Shown here: positions 1 through 17,521 of the stretch, in pieces
How the letters are laid out: each line of letters opens with the position of its first letter
How positions within the stretch are numbered: the first letter of the stretch is position 1
Origin: a virus
Taxonomy: Duplodnaviria > Heunggongvirae > Uroviricota > Caudoviricetes
DNA length: 21,267 bases
Direction: 5' to 3' (one strand)
IMG/VR virus record: IMGVR_UViG_2645727669_000007
Notes under the pieces: generated by a model
Databases searched by the model: none
What the model saw: the letters and a program-made list of their open reading frames with translations, nothing else
What the model was told of the DNA's origin: nothing
Position numbers and translations under genes: made by a program

Positions 1-95
1 GGGGAGGAAGGAAACTACCGGATGGAAAGAGTCCCCCTAAAGCAGACTGACAGACATCACAAATCCCCGGGTGGGGATTTGTGTATAAGAGACAG
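1..95 (-). mobile_element. Terminus of an IS50-like (IS4-family) insertion sequence; 19-bp terminal inverted repeat at 77..95, element body lies left of the window
   Basis: Minus strand of 77..95 reads CTGTCTCTTATACACAAAT, which matches the IS50 outside end (CTGACTCTTATACACAAGT) at 17 of 19 positions as I recall it. The adjacent integrase reading frame loses homology exactly at this point. Confidence 0.55.
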
Positions 96-1115
96 CCGAG
101 TGGCAGGGAATACAAAACTGATACCCTTAAAGCGTGGTAAAGCTTTTAACAAGGCAACAGCAGCATCAGACAGAGGAACTCGATGCTCCTTCGCTGCTTT
201 CATTCGGCTTGCAGGTATGGTCCACGTTTTACCTTCAAGATCGATCTCTGACCACTCGGCACCACGAATTTCACCTGAGCGTGCTGCGGTCAGTATGGCA
301 AACTCAAGCGCACGAGGAGAAACGCCGCTTCGTTCACGTAGTTCTTTCATAAAAGAGCCGATCTGGTTATAGGGAAGGGCCGCATGGTGTTTGGTGATCT
401 GAACTTTACTTGGCTGAGGCAACAGAGGTTTCAGCATACCTTTCCATGCGGCAGGATTATCACCTTCAAAGTATTCTTTGGCCTTGGCGTAATCGATCAC
501 TGTTTCAATACGTCCACGTAGACGACTGGCAGTTTCATTCTTGGTTAACCAGATAGGTTCCAGTATTGCCAGAAGATCGACTTTGGTGATTTCACTAACG
601 GCCTTTTTGCCAATGAAAGGGTAGGCATAGGTTTCCAGTGTGGAACGCCATTGCGCGAGATGTTTTTTGTTCTTCATCTCACTGTCTTTGACCTCCAGCA
701 CTTCTTCACAACATTCGGCAAAGGTCTTTTTCTTCCGGGCCAGTATTTCCTGCCGGGCTTTTTGTTCGTGTTTTTCTTGAAGGGGATTAATACCATTACG
801 GATTTGTTTACGTAGCTCACGCGCTTTGTCACGCGCTTCGGCTAAGGAGACTTCCGGGTAAGGGCCAAGCCCCATATTCAAACGTCTTGGAACTGTTCTA
901 CCGAGATTGTTGATTCGGGTTCCCATAGCCACGCAAAGAACCCATGCACGGGACTGATTTCGGATGCGAAGGTATAAACCATCCACATTACCAACCGCAT
1001 ACATGCCTTCGGATTTTAATCGTGATACGACGAGTCCTGATAGTTCCTTGGCCCTTTCAATGGCATTCGTCACACTTGATACAGAGTTGGCACATTCCTT
1101 GGTATTCTTTAACAT
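96..1115 (-). pseudogene. P4-like tyrosine integrase, 3'-truncated by IS insertion (catalytic His/Arg/Tyr region missing)
   Basis: ORF 57..1115 has integrase N-terminal and core motifs (GLYLRI, PEVSLAEARDKAREL, ILTAARSGEIRGAEW) and ends after FVFPATR. The last 12 codons (57..95) are encoded by the IS terminus. The intact paralog at 3215..4483 continues about 110 residues past the equivalent point. Confidence 0.7.
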
Positions 1116-1316
1116 TACTTTTTATCAACATCAGAATTTCGCATGTAGAAGGTAATCTAAGGTATTGAAATACTTATTGTTATTGTGATATATATAACAT
1201 ATGCAATGATAAGCGCATTTATAGTTTGCGGGTAATTTTTATCTTTTACTGATGGTGTTTATTATTAATGATCATTAATGTAATATATATTAAAATTATT
1301 TTTATGAGGTTCTATT

Positions 1317-2432
1317 ATGTCTGTTAATGATGCCAAAAAACTTGCGGATAAACTTTTCCCAATATTTGATGATGATGATATTTCTATCGTTGATATTCCC
1401 CCTGAGCAGCGTCGATTGCATACCGAGACTTACGATTTTTCAATATCAACACTCGTCGACTATTTGAAAAATGGTACTGTGTTTATTCCTGATTTTCAAA
1501 GGAAATATGTTTGGAGTAGAGGGCAGGCATCAAGATTAATTGAGTCTTTAATAATCCAGTGTCCTATCCCTGTTATTTATTTAAACCAAGAGAAAGATGA
1601 GAGTTTATCTGTTATTGATGGTAATCAACGGTTGACTTCAATTAAACTATTTATTGAGGATGGTTTTGAATTACAGGGATTGACAGCATATCCAGAATTG
1701 GAGGGGAATTCGTTTTCATCACTGGACGCGAGATTCCGTAGGCATATTTTAAATCGCACATTGAGATGCATAACCATATTAAAAGAAACTCACCCTCAAA
1801 TTAAAATTGATGTTTTTGAAAGAATAAATACAGGTGCAGTACAATTAAATCCTCAGGAGGTACGTCATGGAGTTTATCATGGTCCATTATTTACTATGAT
1901 TGACGAAATAAGTGAGGAGAAAGTATGGAGAGACTTAACAGGAATTAAAAATGACACACGAATGAAGAATAATGAACTCATATTGAGAGCATTCGCACTT
2001 TCATATTCTGTGACACCATATAAAAAACCATTAAAGAAATTCCTTAATGATTTTAGTTCTGAAAAACAAAATATTGAACCTGATGTTGCCTTGGAGTGGC
2101 GTAGTAGATTTCTTGGTGCATTAAACTGTATTAATAAATTGTTTGGTAAAAAAGCATTTAGAATTCTAAATGAAAACTTAGAGCCTCAAGTAAGAAATTT
2201 CAATTCTGCTTTATTTGATGCTCTAATTGTCGGGTTTATGGTATCAAAATTTAATCAGGATATGATAAACGAACTTGATGCAACAAAACTTAAGGATTTC
2301 TTAATAGAGTTTCAAAGAATAACATCAGAGGAGCGTTTTAATGAGTCGATTACTTCTGGCACTTCGGCGACGCAATCGGTTCATTATCGTATTAGCACAA
2401 TGAAAAATTTCATTGAACGGTATTTCAACTGA
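1317..2432 (+). CDS. DUF262 (ParB/Srx-like, GmrSD N-terminal-type) domain protein with no fused DUF1524/HNH nuclease
   Basis: 371-aa ORF. GAGG sits 8 nt upstream of the ATG. N-terminal motifs DFQRKYVWS and IDGNQRLTS (DGQQR-like) are characteristic of DUF262. The C-terminal half looks helical with no His-Me finger visible by eye. The region is AT-rich relative to flanking DNA. Confidence 0.75.
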   Translation: MSVNDAKKLADKLFPIFDDDDISIVDIPPEQRRLHTETYDFSISTLVDYLKNGTVFIPDFQRKYVWSRGQASRLIESLIIQCPIPVIYLNQEKDESLSVIDGNQRLTSIKLFIEDGFELQGLTAYPELEGNSFSSLDARFRRHILNRTLRCITILKETHPQIKIDVFERINTGAVQLNPQEVRHGVYHGPLFTMIDEISEEKVWRDLTGIKNDTRMKNNELILRAFALSYSVTPYKKPLKKFLNDFSSEKQNIEPDVALEWRSRFLGALNCINKLFGKKAFRILNENLEPQVRNFNSALFDALIVGFMVSKFNQDMINELDATKLKDFLIEFQRITSEERFNESITSGTSATQSVHYRISTMKNFIERYFN

Positions 2433-3148
2433 TGGCATATATTAAAAGCGCATCTAGAAAACAATTCGAGCAGATTCATTCCAATTTGCTTGAACAGGTT
2501 CGTTATGTTTCAAAAATAAAAGAATTAAGAACAGATATTATACATAGTGTTTATAATAACGCGATATTTCGAGTTTCTGCTGCATTCGAAGATTATATTA
2601 AAGATGTTTTGGAAGATTGGATTGACATGCTGAACCAAAATAACGGATGCCTTTCGCATCTACCTGATGAAATTATCTTGTTTTCTTTATTCAAAAACCA
2701 AGAGAAAAATTTTATAAATTACGTTTCTCATGGTTCTGAGTCAATAATGATGAGTGACTTAAATAAGTGTAAGGATAAACTTCAGGCGTTATCGTCACCT
2801 AATTCTCCTGTAAAGCCTGTTATTGTCCCAAAACAGCTGATAATGGATAAAAAATATCCTTCCAAAAAAAATATCAAACTTCTTTTTAATAGATTTGGTA
2901 TCAAAGATATATTAAAAGCAATGACTGCGAAAGGTAAAAAAGATTATGAGTTCATGCTCCAGTCTTTCTCTGATAGCCGCACGGAGTTAGCCCATTCATA
3001 TTCTTCAATTAATCTTTCAAAAGATACTGTTATTGATAAGCTAAATAATGTTAAAGAAATTGTTAGGATTATGGATAGGATATTATATTCACATGTCTGT
3101 GATAAAAGTGGTAGTGAATACTGGAAAACAGAACTGTTAGCGATTTAG
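2432..3148 (+). CDS. Partner protein of the DUF262 gene; candidate HEPN-like effector (Rx4HxY motif)
   Basis: 238-aa ORF whose ATG overlaps the upstream stop (TGATG), indicating translational coupling. Contains SRTELAHSY (R-x4-H followed by Y) in the C-terminal third. No other family recognised by eye. Confidence 0.55.
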   Translation: MAYIKSASRKQFEQIHSNLLEQVRYVSKIKELRTDIIHSVYNNAIFRVSAAFEDYIKDVLEDWIDMLNQNNGCLSHLPDEIILFSLFKNQEKNFINYVSHGSESIMMSDLNKCKDKLQALSSPNSPVKPVIVPKQLIMDKKYPSKKNIKLLFNRFGIKDILKAMTAKGKKDYEFMLQSFSDSRTELAHSYSSINLSKDTVIDKLNNVKEIVRIMDRILYSHVCDKSGSEYWKTELLAI

Positions 3149-3155
3149 TATTAAT

Positions 3156-3176
3156 GCGGCTAATATCTTTAGCCGC
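3156..3176. terminator. Hairpin between convergent genes (possible bidirectional terminator)
   Basis: GCGGCTA / TAGCCGC 7-bp stem with a 7-nt loop, lying between the stop of 2432..3148 (+) and the stop of the integrase (-). No strong T-run follows. Confidence 0.3.
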
Positions 3177-3214
3177 ATTGAAGTTGAAGCAACCTTTGAC
3201 CACCATGTTTACTT

Positions 3215-4483
3215 TTATTGAGCAAACTCAAACGGCCTGACCATCCCATCCCGATTTGCATCAAGATAATCTGCCCACCACTGTAACATCAATCTTCTCT
3301 GTTCAAGATGTTTGGCCTTATGGGTATAGGCAGCACGCACACTGTTGCTTTCCTTGTGGCTCATCTGAAGTTCTACCGCATCTTTAGACCATAGCCCTGA
3401 TTCAATCAGAGCACTACATGCCAGTGTTCGGAAACCATGACCGCAGATGTCCTGCGTGGTGTCATAGCCCATCTTACGCAGCGCCTTGTTGATGGTGTTT
3501 TCACTCATGGGTTTGAATGAGTCATAACATCCAGTAAAAATTAATCCGGCGTCATTACCTTCTTCATAGGTAAGCTGACGGATCTCTTTCAGTATCTTAA
3601 GAGCCTGCCTGCAAAGGGGAACAAAGTGCTGGCGTTTCATTTTTGCGCCACGCGTGGAATATTTGACGCGCTCAATCACTTCACGCTTTTCTGGTATCAC
3701 CCATAACTTACTGTTGAAGTCGATTTCTGACCATCGTGCATAGCGGAGTTCACTGGAACGAATGAAAATCAACAGATTGAGTTTAATCGCCAGTGTGGTA
3801 AGTCCACGGCCTTTGTAGGCATCAATACGTTCAAGTAGCAGGGGGATCTCTTCCAGCTCCAGTGCGGGACGGTGCTCAGTCTCTGGTTTCTGCACAGCAC
3901 CTTCCATATCGTAAGCAGGATTATGGCGCATAAGTTTTTGCTGGACGGCGTGACGCAGGATGGCAGTGATGTATTGCTTGATCCGCATGGCAATTTCAAG
4001 ATAGCCAAGCGTTTCTGCTTTTTTTACCGGAACAAGCAGATCACCCGTATCCAGATCTGAAACGTTGCTGTCACCAATATCCGGGAATACATAGGTCTCA
4101 AGGCGCTTCCATACCGTATCGGCGTAATCTTCAGACCATTTTGTTTTGGTGGCAAACCAGCTTCTGGCGACGACACGGAACGAACGGGTTTTATCCCGCT
4201 TTTCCTGCAGAGTTTTTTCATCAGCCTGTTTTTTAGCGTTAGGATCGATTCCCTGAGCAAGCAGCTTTTTTGCTTCATCACGTCGTTGTCTGGCATCAGC
4301 AAGAGAAACCGCAGGGTAAACACCAATGGAAAACACTTTCTGTTTACCATCGAAGCGATAGCCTAACTGCCAGTATTTTGAACCATTGGGATGCAAAAGA
4401 AGGTAGAGACCAAATCCATCAGTGAGCTTGACGGCTTTTTCCGCTGGTCTGGCATTTTTTACTTTAGTATCAGTAAGTGACAT
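3215..4483 (-). CDS. P4-like tyrosine integrase (intact), tRNA-Asn associated
   Basis: Start MSLTDTKVKNARP is preceded by GGAGGG. Motifs GFGLYLLLHPNGSKYW, YPAVSLADARQRRDEAKK, HGFRTLACSALIESG and RAAYTHKAKHLEQRRLMLQWWADYLD are present. The ORF-track start at 4549 adds an unlikely 22-aa extension. The gene lies immediately downstream of the tRNA-Asn 3' end. Confidence 0.85.
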   Translation of the reverse strand: MSLTDTKVKNARPAEKAVKLTDGFGLYLLLHPNGSKYWQLGYRFDGKQKVFSIGVYPAVSLADARQRRDEAKKLLAQGIDPNAKKQADEKTLQEKRDKTRSFRVVARSWFATKTKWSEDYADTVWKRLETYVFPDIGDSNVSDLDTGDLLVPVKKAETLGYLEIAMRIKQYITAILRHAVQQKLMRHNPAYDMEGAVQKPETEHRPALELEEIPLLLERIDAYKGRGLTTLAIKLNLLIFIRSSELRYARWSEIDFNSKLWVIPEKREVIERVKYSTRGAKMKRQHFVPLCRQALKILKEIRQLTYEEGNDAGLIFTGCYDSFKPMSENTINKALRKMGYDTTQDICGHGFRTLACSALIESGLWSKDAVELQMSHKESNSVRAAYTHKAKHLEQRRLMLQWWADYLDANRDGMVRPFEFAQ

Positions 4484-4623
4484 GACGGTTCCCTCCGCGT
4501 GCTGGTAAAACGCAAATCGAACCAGCTTTACCAGCATTTTTACCAGCAAAGTAGTGTGGATTCGAGCGGTTTTTAACGAACGAGGGTGAACCTGAAGAAG
4601 GGGATAACCAGTTGATATAAATG

Positions 4624-4662: not shown

Positions 4663-4738
4663 TGGCTCCTCTGACTGGACTCGAACCAGTGACATACGGA
4701 TTAACAGTCCGCCGTTCTACCGACTGAACTACAGAGGA
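4663..4738 (-). tRNA. asnT: tRNA-Asn (anticodon GTT)
   Basis: Reverse complement reads TCCTCTGTAGTTCAGTCGGTAGAACGGCGGACTGTTAATCCGTATGTCACTGGTTCGAGTCCAGTCAGAGGAGCCA, a 76-nt cloverleaf with a CTGTTAA anticodon loop that matches E. coli tRNA-Asn as I recall it. The asnT assignment rests on the neighbouring mtfA and serU genes. Confidence 0.9.
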
Positions 4739-5871: not shown

Positions 5872-6897
5872 TTACTTGGAATATTTTCTTGGAATATTTT
5901 CAGGTAACGGGACATCAAGTGTTGGTGAAACTTTAACCTTCCTGTCATAGATTAGCACTTGCCCTTCGGTTTTGTGACCAGAGAAAAGTTGCTTATCCCG
6001 GCTGCTTCCTTCATAGTCTGAAATTCCTTTCGCCTTCAGATCATGAAAGGTGAAGTCGGTTAAAATACCTGAAATTTTTCCAGCACGATTTCTTGCTTCT
6101 ACCCACATTTCGTTAAAGCCTTTGTACATATATCGGTTGCCGTATTGATTGCTGATCACATAGGCAGATTTTGGTAACTGTTTTGCTTTTTCGATCGCTG
6201 CCTGTAATCGTGGACTCCATGCTTTTATCTGTTTTTTTCCGGTTTTCCCTTGCTGGATGAATATCCCGTCGTTTCCAATCTGTTCCCATTTCAGCGATAA
6301 CACATCGGAAACCCTCGCTGCACACAGATAGGCAATTTCCATTGCGATAAAAACAGGAAGAGGTGCAACGCTTAATACTGCCTGGTATTCTTTGTCGGTT
6401 ACATATCGTTCGCGGTTTTTGGCCTTGAATTTACTTACACCTGCACATGGGTTAGCCTTGACGTACCCTCGCTCATACCCCCAACTGTAAACACGGGACA
6501 TACTGCTTTTTTCATGGTTGGCTTGCGTTTTACTCTGCTCCCCTCTTTTGTCCATGTATCGACGGATGTGTTCTGGTTTTATGGAATCCGCTGGTACCTT
6601 ACCGAATACGGCAAGCAACTTTTTTTGATGTTGCAGATAATCTTTTTGTGTTCTTGGACTAAGGTCACTGTAATAGGCGCTGGCGAGGAATTTTTCCCAC
6701 AAGCGACCGAATGTCATTGCACGATCGCGATTATTTACAGTTTCCTCATACTTTTTCCATAAAGCAGCTAAACCATCCTTGATGGCGGTTAGTGTGACAG
6801 ATTCTCTGGATGTTGGTTTCCATACATAACTATATTTATTTGGGTATACATTTGGAGGTAATTTTTCGTGTTCAGGATTTTTCCTTCGTCTTCCCAT
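5872..6897 (-). CDS. int: Prophage tyrosine integrase (lambdoid), tRNA-Ser site
   Basis: 341-aa ORF directly downstream of the serU 3' end. Overlaps an excisionase-like ORF by 1 nt. A catalytic-domain-like region (AYLCAARVSDVLSLKWEQI ... HDLKAKG) is present. Confidence 0.8.
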   Translation of the reverse strand: MGRRRKNPEHEKLPPNVYPNKYSYVWKPTSRESVTLTAIKDGLAALWKKYEETVNNRDRAMTFGRLWEKFLASAYYSDLSPRTQKDYLQHQKKLLAVFGKVPADSIKPEHIRRYMDKRGEQSKTQANHEKSSMSRVYSWGYERGYVKANPCAGVSKFKAKNRERYVTDKEYQAVLSVAPLPVFIAMEIAYLCAARVSDVLSLKWEQIGNDGIFIQQGKTGKKQIKAWSPRLQAAIEKAKQLPKSAYVISNQYGNRYMYKGFNEMWVEARNRAGKISGILTDFTFHDLKAKGISDYEGSSRDKQLFSGHKTEGQVLIYDRKVKVSPTLDVPLPENIPRKYSK

Positions 6898-10239: not shown

Positions 10240-10297
10240 AAAAAGGGCGGCAGAGCAGTCACGGAGTAAAACTGATACCGCCAAACGTCACCAGAAA
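10240..10297 (-). ncRNA. dicF: DicF small RNA (ftsZ-targeting sRNA) with intrinsic terminator
   Basis: Minus strand reads TTTCTGGTGACGTTTGGCGGTATCAGTTTTACTCCGTGACTGCTCTGCCGCCCTTTTT. This matches the DicF sequence as I recall it and includes a GGCGG...CCGCC stem plus U-run. It lies between the ydfC-like and dicB genes, as in the Qin dicB operon. Confidence 0.7.
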
Positions 10298-16035: not shown

Positions 16036-16528
16036 CGCAATCTCCTAAATTTACTTGCTAAAGTCAGTGTACTTTTATCATGTTGCTTCATTGTGTATGA
16101 AAGTAACATTGGTTGTCCATGCTCGTTTGTCTCTCATAATTCACAAATTTGCGAATATTTTTTATAAAAAATTCAAAACAGATAGGTTGACACAATCAAA
16201 ATTCACAAAGGGCACCTGCTTCTAATGTGGTTACGGCCCGATCATACGGGCAATGTCTTTCCATTATTGAAAACTCCGGGATCAACCATGATATATGAAG
16301 TCTCTTGCTATCCAGTTAAGTAAATGTCTGCTTCTCGCTCAAAGTGGGCTAGAAGGTTAGCTTGCGTCGGACTTGGCGTATTTAAAGAAGTGCTGGTGGT
16401 GACTGGTTATTGTGTTCCATTTCTACAGAACAAAATCACAGAAACTATACCCAATAGTTGTATTGAATCACTGACGAGACAGCCTCATATTTATCAGGAC
16501 TGATGTACGTCCAATACAGGAGGTTGTG

Positions 16529-16618
16529 GTGCTGGTTCTCAAATGTGCGCTGGCTATTGCTGCCTTAATGGCAATTTATTGCCTTGCTGTTGTTCTTATG
16601 GATCGCCTTTCTGACTGA
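16529..16618 (+). CDS. Candidate 29-aa hydrophobic peptide (type I toxin-like)
   Basis: AGGAGG at 16518..16523, then a 5-nt spacer and a GTG start. Product MLVLKCALAIAALMAIYCLAVVLMDRLSD has a single predicted transmembrane helix. Not in the ORF track because it is under 60 aa. Confidence 0.25.
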   Translation: MLVLKCALAIAALMAIYCLAVVLMDRLSD

Positions 16619-16829
16619 TTTCATATTGGCGAGGTAACGGGAGTTAAGTAGAATGGCTGCGGGTGCTTGAGGCTATCTGTCTCAGGCATGAACACCAAAG
16701 GCAGATAGAGAAAAGCCCCAGTTAACATTACGCGTCCTGCAAGACGCTTAACATTAATCTGAGGCTCAATCTATGAACGGCAAATCTAGGTTAGCCTCTT
16801 ACGTGCCGAAAGGCAAGGAGAAGCAGGCT

Positions 16830-16985
16830 ATGAAGCAGCAAAAGGCGATGTTAATCGCCCTGATCGTCATCTGTTTAACCGTCATAGTGACGGCACTGGT
16901 AACGAGGAAAGACCTCTGCGAGGTACGAATCCGAACCGGCCAGACGGAGGTCGCTGTCTTCACAGCTTACGAACCTGAGGAGTAA
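16830..16985 (+). CDS. hok: Hok/Gef-family type I toxin (HokD/RelF-like)
   Basis: 51-aa product MKQQKAMLIALIVICLTVIVTALVTRKDLCEVRIRTGQTEVAVFTAYEPEE with AAGGAG upstream. The ORF-track entry at 16773 is an in-frame upstream extension. Confidence 0.8.
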   Translation: MKQQKAMLIALIVICLTVIVTALVTRKDLCEVRIRTGQTEVAVFTAYEPEE

Positions 16986-17128
16986 GAGACCTGGCGGGGG
17001 AGAAATCCCTCGCCACCTCTGATGTGTCAGGCATCCTCAACGCACCCGCACTTAACCCGCTTCGGCGTTTTTTCCGTTGATTAACTCTAGTTATTAGAGA
17101 ACCGAACTTTTATTGATGGGGCAGGGAG

Positions 17129-17521
17129 ATGAAGAAACTTGTTTTAGTCGCAGGTGTAATGATTGCAACAGTAATGTTGGGAGGGTGTGCAGCAAAGGTC
17201 GATCCAGCGTTGAAAGCAGAAGCAATGAAGCCACTAACATGTAATGATGAAAAGCAATGTGACTTTTATTGGAAACGAGCGCAATTCTGGTTGGCTAATA
17301 ATTCCTCATGGAAAATTCAAACGGCGACAGACACGCTAATTTCCACTTATAATCCCTCTCCAAATAGTCCATTCCTCGCTTATCAAGTGAGTAAAATGCC
17401 AAATGAAGATGGATCCTCAAGAATTTTCATCAAGCCTTTTTGCGATAATATGTTTGGCTGTCAACCAAACCCCTATCAGGCAGTTGTTTCCTTTAAAAAC
17501 TTCGTTAAAACAGGGCAGTAG
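17129..17521 (+). CDS. Prophage lipoprotein (signal peptide with LGGC lipobox)
   Basis: MKKLVLVAGVMIATVMLGGCAAK N-terminus with GGGAG upstream, followed by a clean intrinsic terminator. Confidence 0.7.
   Translation: MKKLVLVAGVMIATVMLGGCAAKVDPALKAEAMKPLTCNDEKQCDFYWKRAQFWLANNSSWKIQTATDTLISTYNPSPNSPFLAYQVSKMPNEDGSSRIFIKPFCDNMFGCQPNPYQAVVSFKNFVKTGQ

Follow-up and report, generated by a model that had tools for sequence, protein, structure and literature searches.

The 21,267-nucleotide stretch of viral DNA analysed here (IMG/VR record IMGVR_UViG_2645727669_000007, Caudoviricetes; the whole stretch is referred to as the window) carries a hok toxin gene nested within a longer reading frame, mok, together with a promoter, a leader, a candidate gene for the antisense RNA Sok on the opposite strand, and a 3' untranslated region with a putative fold-back element. 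The positions of these features and of their neighbors are given in Table 1.

Table 1. The hok locus and neighboring features of the window (columns: feature, position, strand, remarks).
Island beside tRNA-Asn (4663-4738)	57-4549		Two P4-type integrase genes flank GmrSD_N (DUF262) and RiboL-PSP HEPN proteins
DicF sRNA, full length	10245-10296	-	Rfam 76.7 bits; within the dicB-ydfA block
FRG-domain protein, 444 aa	14701-16035	-	PF08867, PHROG 4962; directly upstream of the hok locus, divergent
Unannotated 30-aa hydrophobic ORF, VLVLKCALAIAALMAIYCLAVVLMDRLSD	16526-16618	+	Strong AGGAGG Shine-Dalgarno 5 nt upstream
hok/mok mRNA promoter	16626-16654	+	-35 TTGGCG (16626-16631), 17-nt spacer, -10 TAGAAT (16649-16654)
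Full-length hok mRNA	16661-17073	+	About 413 nt; 5' end placed by homology, 3' end by the U-tract
tac, translational activator element, GGGUGCUUGAGG	16661-16672	+	Predicted to pair with fbi (full-length) or ucb (truncated)
Sok antisense RNA	16711-16781	-	71 nt; 14-nt single-stranded 5' tail GCCGUUCAUAGAUU, then a long hairpin with a terminal UUUU
ucb / anti-SD box, AAGCCCCA	16713-16720	+	Predicted to pair with the SDmok region 16759-16766 (full-length) or tac (truncated)
mok Shine-Dalgarno sequence GAGG	16761-16764	+	8 nt 5' of the mok ATG; read from the sequence
Sok-target hairpin of the processed mRNA	16761-16798	+	3' arm AGCCUC (16793-16798) is dcb; apical 16776-16786 hypervariable
mok ORF	16773-16985	+	ATG, 70 aa; ORF list, homology to mokW/mokC
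sok promoter	16788-16816	-	-35 TTGCCT (16816-16811), 17-nt spacer, -10 TAACCT (16793-16788)
hok Shine-Dalgarno sequence AGGAG	16816-16820	+	Also the start of the K-12 relBE-hokD homology
hok toxin ORF	16830-16985	+	51 aa; Pfam and identity to K-12 HokD
3'-UTR stem-loop, GAAA loop	16992-17015	+	Stem of 10 bp, present in all folds
fbi, fold-back inhibition element, CCUCAAcGCACCC	17035-17047	+	Predicted to pair with tac, 12 bp with a 1-nt bulge
Weak intrinsic terminator	17058-17073	+	CGC-UUCG-GCG hairpin followed by U6; direct folding
Lipoprotein gene, 130 aa	17129-17521		PHROG 16082; downstream of the hok locus

The window is E. coli DNA, and its left end is occupied by an island that is 99.8% identical to EPEC E2348/69 and is likely a defence islet. 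It is followed by mtfA and tRNA-Ser(CGA), beyond which a lambdoid Rac/Qin-like prophage fills the rest of the window. The prophage genes are ordered integrase (5872-6897), RecE-like exonuclease, DicF, CI-like S24 repressor, and replication genes, and then the FRG-domain gene, the hok locus, the lipoprotein gene, a DUF968/YdfU gene, and a Q antiterminator. Synteny with the Qin prophage of K-12 is evident by blastn in the dicB-ydfA block (96%), at hokD (16816-17073, 98%), and in ydfU (85%). Phage Tritos codes for a 444-aa hypothetical protein in matching position and orientation beside its own hok locus. The small reading frame between the FRG-domain gene and the hok promoter is retained in strain UMNF18 and in Tritos, with one L-to-V and one synonymous change; neither it nor a 59-aa reading frame has a match in PHROGs, and from its hydrophobic sequence its product could be a small membrane protein.

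Pfam PF01848 (Hok/Gef) matches the 51-aa hok product with an E value of 1.2e-23 and 82.9 bits against a cut-off of 22, and both the Pfam and the Rfam scores at the locus are far above chance. The original prediction had recognized this product as HokD, correctly, as the coding sequence matches K-12 hokD at all 156 nucleotides and the proteins are identical. It had also proposed the ATG at 16773 as the start of a mok-like leader frame, and this ATG is indeed the mok start, lying at the same position as that of 933W mokW and corresponding to that of K-12 mokC; PHROG 251 ('MokW-like host killing') matches the reading frame with an E value of 7.7e-33. The mok and hok ATGs are 57 nt apart and mok is therefore in frame with hok, such that Mok consists of Hok with 19 additional N-terminal residues. 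The GAGG preceding mok is unchanged throughout the relatives compared, and in the predicted full-length fold it is masked by ucb.

With mok in frame, translation from 16773 must give a protein containing the whole of Hok, and Mok could itself be a second, or even the main, toxic species, and not purely a regulatory leader product. This idea is compatible with the explanation we favor below, and the in-frame offset of 57, unlike the offset of 58 in R1 and hokB, speaks for it, but we consider it distinctly improbable: Mok residues 2-5 are hypervariable (MNGKS, MLNTC, MLYTR, and MSHKC, among others), which suggests an unconstrained peptide, hok retains its own strong AGGAG Shine-Dalgarno sequence, and the 51-aa reading frame alone was toxic in the experiments of Takada et al. 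(PMC8621323). HokD is toxic when overexpressed, and hokD mRNA, like hokB mRNA, is reported to be A-to-I edited with the conversion of Tyr46 to Cys46 (preprint 10.1101/2025.08.07.668861). In the window allele Tyr46 is encoded by TAC followed by G (16965-16968), and the codon is intact.

The promoter assigned to the hok mRNA is the sole sigma-70-like site that a promoter scan finds within 16300-17300, and its TAGAAT hexamer is shared by 933W, Tritos, and the IMG/VR loci. Only 6 nt separate its end from the start of the match to Rfam model RF01794, which covers 16661-16835 at full length (model positions 1-157) on the plus strand with 110 bits (E=1.3e-24; gathering score 59). This family is named 'sok antitoxin', yet it hits the hok-sense strand; its consensus starts at tac and ends at the hok AUG, and it thus describes the hok leader and not the Sok orientation, so that the strand of the match says nothing of the orientation of Sok. 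The leader ahead of hok is 169 nt long, and opens with GG(G/C)(U)GC(U/C)UGAG, as do the R1-type and hokB/hokC leaders.

On the minus strand, as judged only by homology and folding, a cis-encoded Sok gene with its own promoter and a terminator hairpin appears to overlap the mok start. Its coordinates are those of the sokW misc_RNA annotated in 933W, carried over 1:1, and the +1 G at 16781 is in alignment with the annotated 5' end of K-12 sokC. The predicted fold has a free energy of -30 kcal/mol (z=-5.6), with a hairpin about 18 nt longer than the Rfam consensus. The sok promoter lies below the threshold of a generic sigma-70 scan, with consensus matches of 4/6 at -35 and 3/6 at -10, and it was missed because its -10 TAACCT matches only three of the six positions; we assigned it by homology with sokW, sokC, and R1. 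Both hexamers and the spacer are the same as those of 933W sokW, and the R1-type TTGCGC/TATCCT aligns with the -35 and -10 sequences of the window. Takada et al. mutated the sokW -10 sequence (primers YO-421/422) with loss of antitoxin activity, and detected both sokW RNA and hokW mRNA in Northern blots (PMC8621323); their probe YO-597 is identical to the window minus strand at 16816-16787.

Folding in silico predicts a switch between two forms of the mRNA. The full-length RNA (16661-17076) has a minimum free energy (MFE) of -164.3 kcal/mol (z=-6.6), although MFE folding of a 400-nt RNA is indicative only, and the 12-bp tac:fbi pairing is found in both the MFE and the centroid structures. The tac/fbi duplex is predicted at -21.5 kcal/mol against a mean of -14.8 kcal/mol for shuffled sequences, and only 3 of 500 shuffles equal it; a duplex at the same offset past the stop codon is present in 933W, Tritos, PPompW, and hokB, with compensatory changes in hokB (U-A to C-G and G-C to A-U). 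When the 3' end is truncated between 17040 and 17035 the MFE structure flips: ucb becomes the partner of tac, and the Sok-target hairpin appears, which is seen only in folds with a 3' end at or before 17035. Truncation also makes the hok Shine-Dalgarno sequence more open, its mean probability of being unpaired going from 0.32 to about 0.7. This behavior agrees with the R1 refolding switch as summarized in PMC9841398, and the modelled folding supports a mechanism shared with R1, not activity. The stem-loop immediately past the hok stop codon is likely, by analogy, to form the protective 3' end of the processed mRNA, as its R1 counterpart protects the truncated mRNA (PMC9841398). Sequence diversity in ucb is zero among 63 unique relatives.

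The 3' end of the locus departs from its relatives. The terminator hairpin is short of two G-C pairs that are present in K-12, Tritos, and the majority of IMG/VR loci, with a predicted -3.1 kcal/mol compared with -11.8 kcal/mol for the CCCGC/GCGGG form of K-12 and Tritos, and a generic terminator scan called nothing past fbi. This weak variant occurs in 2 of 80 IMG/VR loci and in strain UMNF18. With the terminator weakened, the 3' end of the hok mRNA may lie further downstream, which could change processing kinetics, and transcription might run on into the lipoprotein gene at 17129. The break in the terminator coincides with a mosaic junction to a different downstream gene, that of the 130-aa lipoprotein.

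RelB and RelE of K-12 give only chance matches to the whole window by tblastn (E values of at least 0.27), in agreement with the original prediction that no relBE operon is adjacent. The upstream sequence is a hok leader, and not the relBEF-type arrangement in which relB and relE lie directly upstream of hokD. The prediction's view of this as an anomaly is not borne out. A survey of 5426 complete E. coli genomes finds a leader over at least 80% of its length in 4263 (median two copies) and the relE-hokD junction in 1201, making the leader form 3.5 times commoner. In the genomes without relBE, among the matches listed, only the last 33-35 nt of the K-12 junction query are matched. The locus was found in 102 phage records, and 77 of 80 IMG/VR loci with an identical HokD have the leader, two have relE, and one has another rearrangement at the same breakpoint.

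The homology with K-12 at hok is limited to the 98%-identical segment noted above and begins exactly at the hok Shine-Dalgarno sequence, which identifies relBE as having replaced the leader in K-12; the K-12 sequence upstream of the breakpoint is that of relE and the region 3' of it, and is related to no hok leader. This replacement is already published and the case is thus already known; the ancestral hokD reading frame of about 70 codons is described as truncated through relBE integration in PMC6379469. A hok gene without relBE is the common and ancestral state, and K-12 relBE-hokD is a derived exception. The converse reading, raised by the original prediction as its own refutation, is that the window holds a promoterless hokD left as a remnant after deletion of relBE from a relBEF operon. 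It can draw on the identity of the hok coding sequence to K-12 hokD and on nothing else, and it has next to no chance of being correct, as the 169 nt 5' of hok are homologous to the hokC, hokB, R1 hok, and hokW leaders, bear a promoter, tac, ucb, mok, and sok, and have no deletion scar; the greater frequency of the leader form and the published reading (PMC6379469) of relBE as the inserted element also run against it. Alignment gives the reverse history, with K-12 having lost to relBE everything upstream of 16816, and rules the remnant out.

A third architecture is present in IMGVR_UViG_2548876852_000004 (L087), where unrelated sequence meets hok at the breakpoint ACAGGAGAAGC, 20 nt upstream. 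The K-12 relE junction has the same breakpoint, which points to a junction that recurs or to descent from the relBE form.

Expression and antisense control of the gene had been considered unclear, but the locus has a promoter, a leader, mok, a Sok gene, and fold-back elements, each with homology to characterized loci; the alignment against hok/sok and relBEF loci that had been proposed as a check placed mok, the sok promoter, and the fold-back elements. We therefore regard 16626-17073 as most probably (with a probability of roughly 0.9) an intact, self-contained type I hok/mok/sok module of the hokD/hokW subtype, situated in the early-right (nin-like) region of a lambdoid prophage, the two reading frames being observed directly and the RNA elements assigned from sequence and modelled folds. 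In the mechanism we infer, modelled on plasmid R1 and sokW, a constitutive promoter would give a hok mRNA of about 410 nt that is translationally inert, with the 5' tac paired to the 3' fbi and ucb masking the mok Shine-Dalgarno sequence. Slow 3' trimming would take off fbi and allow tac:ucb pairing and formation of the Sok-target hairpin, and the trimmed mRNA would have mok translatable, with hok translated through translational coupling. The unstable 71-nt Sok would block this by pairing of its single-stranded 5' tail across the mok start region, with degradation of the duplex, and if Sok synthesis stopped, either by loss of the element or by prophage induction, Hok would be made and the inner membrane damaged. 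The transcript ends, 3' processing, Sok abundance, toxicity in the source strain, and biological role are likewise drawn by inference; the role may lie in maintaining the prophage, in aiding lysis upon induction as for HokW, or in phage exclusion.

Native chromosomal hokA, hokB, and hokC are reported to show no post-segregational killing (preprint 10.1101/2025.08.07.668861, citing Pedersen & Gerdes), and an intact anatomy is therefore no proof of activity. The window locus could correspondingly be anatomically intact but silent, in the manner of the chromosomal hok loci of K-12: a selfish or decaying passenger without killing activity or benefit to prophage or host. Its weakened terminator would fit such decay. 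We think this unlikely in view of the heterozygosity of only 0-0.04 in tac, ucb, the sok promoter, and fbi, the integrity of both reading frames, the toxicity of HokD once expressed (preprint 10.1101/2025.08.07.668861), and the activity of the close homologue hokW/sokW of phage Sp5, which affects phage release (PMC8621323).

One short segment of the hok/mok/sok module is hypervariable among relatives. Positions 16766-16787 take in the first 16 nucleotides of Sok and the 6 nt that directly precede its start; on the mRNA they correspond to the apex of the target hairpin and to codons 2-5 of mok. No variation is seen at the mok ATG, at the Sok +1 position, or in the flanking stems. There are 17 Sok-tail alleles among 81 unique modules (loci L011-L210 compared), and the tail is some 12 to 30 times as diverse as the third-codon positions of hok. 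Among loci selected for an identical HokD, the core patch 16776-16786 has a heterozygosity of 0.355, compared with 0.012 at hok third-codon positions; among loci selected instead by the tac motif, the Sok tail without the anti-ATG has 0.446 compared with 0.038, with 17 alleles. Pairs of modules that differ at only 1-2 of 367 positions elsewhere have 7-10 differences in the 22 positions of 16766-16787. Predicted tail-target duplexes are at about -22 kcal/mol for cognate pairs and -4 to -13 kcal/mol for non-cognate pairs. Three pairs of prophages in the same genome were available, and only three, of which two have different Sok alleles and one has identical alleles.

These patterns may reflect diversifying selection for mutually orthogonal Sok specificities, a proposal we put forward tentatively and at somewhat less than even odds. 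If it is true, co-resident or incoming prophages could not neutralize one another's Hok. Changes in antisense-RNA loops create plasmid incompatibility groups, and we offer this as a parallel to orthogonality of the Sok tails. Relaxed constraint together with recombination is the alternative explanation. We found no description of Sok-tail hypervariability or of cross-talk for hok/sok in the literature searched, and a recent Hok survey analysed only the Hok coding sequence. Should selection be confirmed, the hypervariable tail would provide a natural set of orthogonal antisense/target pairs, and would bear on competition between prophages.

The organization of the locus also has consequences for annotation. 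At homologous loci RefSeq/PGAP has only the 51-aa hokD coding sequence and nothing under the 175-nt leader; mok and Sok are omitted, and the antitoxin is therefore invisible in standard annotation. Both are systematically missing from E. coli genome annotation, and hokD loci that bear a leader should not be annotated as orphan toxins, the K-12 relBE-hokD being a rearranged exception.

Among the known systems, the hok/mok/sok (parB) locus of plasmid R1 shares tac, ucb, SDmok, dcb, sokT, SDhok, fbi, and the 3' stem-loop with the window in similar order and spacing, with a leader of 173 nt compared with 169 nt. The block GTAAGAGGC opposite the Sok-target hairpin is invariant in the R1, hokB, hokC, and hokW types. 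Identity of Hok to R1 is about 44%, a figure reported for HokW (PMC8621323). The mok-hok offset is 58 (+1 frame) in R1 and hokB, whereas mok is in frame in the window, mokW, and mokC, and the R1 terminator is far stronger at -25 kcal/mol. The R1 locus is carried on a plasmid and has been shown to act in post-segregational killing, and the window locus is in a prophage. RNAduplex gave an ambiguous split tac/fbi duplex for the R1 type that was equalled by 84 of 500 shuffles and is not significant, so that the comparison with R1 is one of sequence inspection only. A Klebsiella plasmid hok locus (L008) had no recognizable tac within the fetched flank and was left out.

The K-12 hokC/mokC/sokC (gef) locus has the same tac and an in-frame mok (69 aa), and keeps ucb and dcb, but it is chromosomal with an adjoining copy of IS186, whereas the window copy is prophage-borne; its sokC hairpin is shorter, that of the window having about 18 nt more. 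The K-12 Qin hokD (relF of the relBEF operon) lies in a Qin/Rac-like prophage that is syntenic with that of the window and likewise has dicB-dicF and ydfU, and its 3' UTR, including fbi, is 98% identical; it is co-transcribed with relBE, has a strong terminator, and is without the promoter, tac, ucb, mok start, Sok gene, and sok promoter.

The mokW/hokW/sokW locus of 933W/Sp5 (VT2-Sakai) is also located in a lambdoid prophage and has components of equal length (mok 213, hok 156, Sok 71, and leader 169 nt), and the 933W features as annotated by Plunkett (1999) are placed by a constant offset at 16773-16985, 16830-16985, and 16781 to 16711 (minus strand). The sequence past fbi and the downstream gene are unlike those of the window, the Hok C-termini differ (...FTAYEPEE in the window and ...FVDYESEK in HokW), and the two loci have different alleles of the Sok 5' tail and of mok codons 2-5 (GCCGUUCAU... 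in the window and GUUCAGCAU... in 933W/Sp5). Over 16641-17057 the 933W locus is 93% identical to the window, and the sok -35 and -10 sequences, tac, and fbi are identical.
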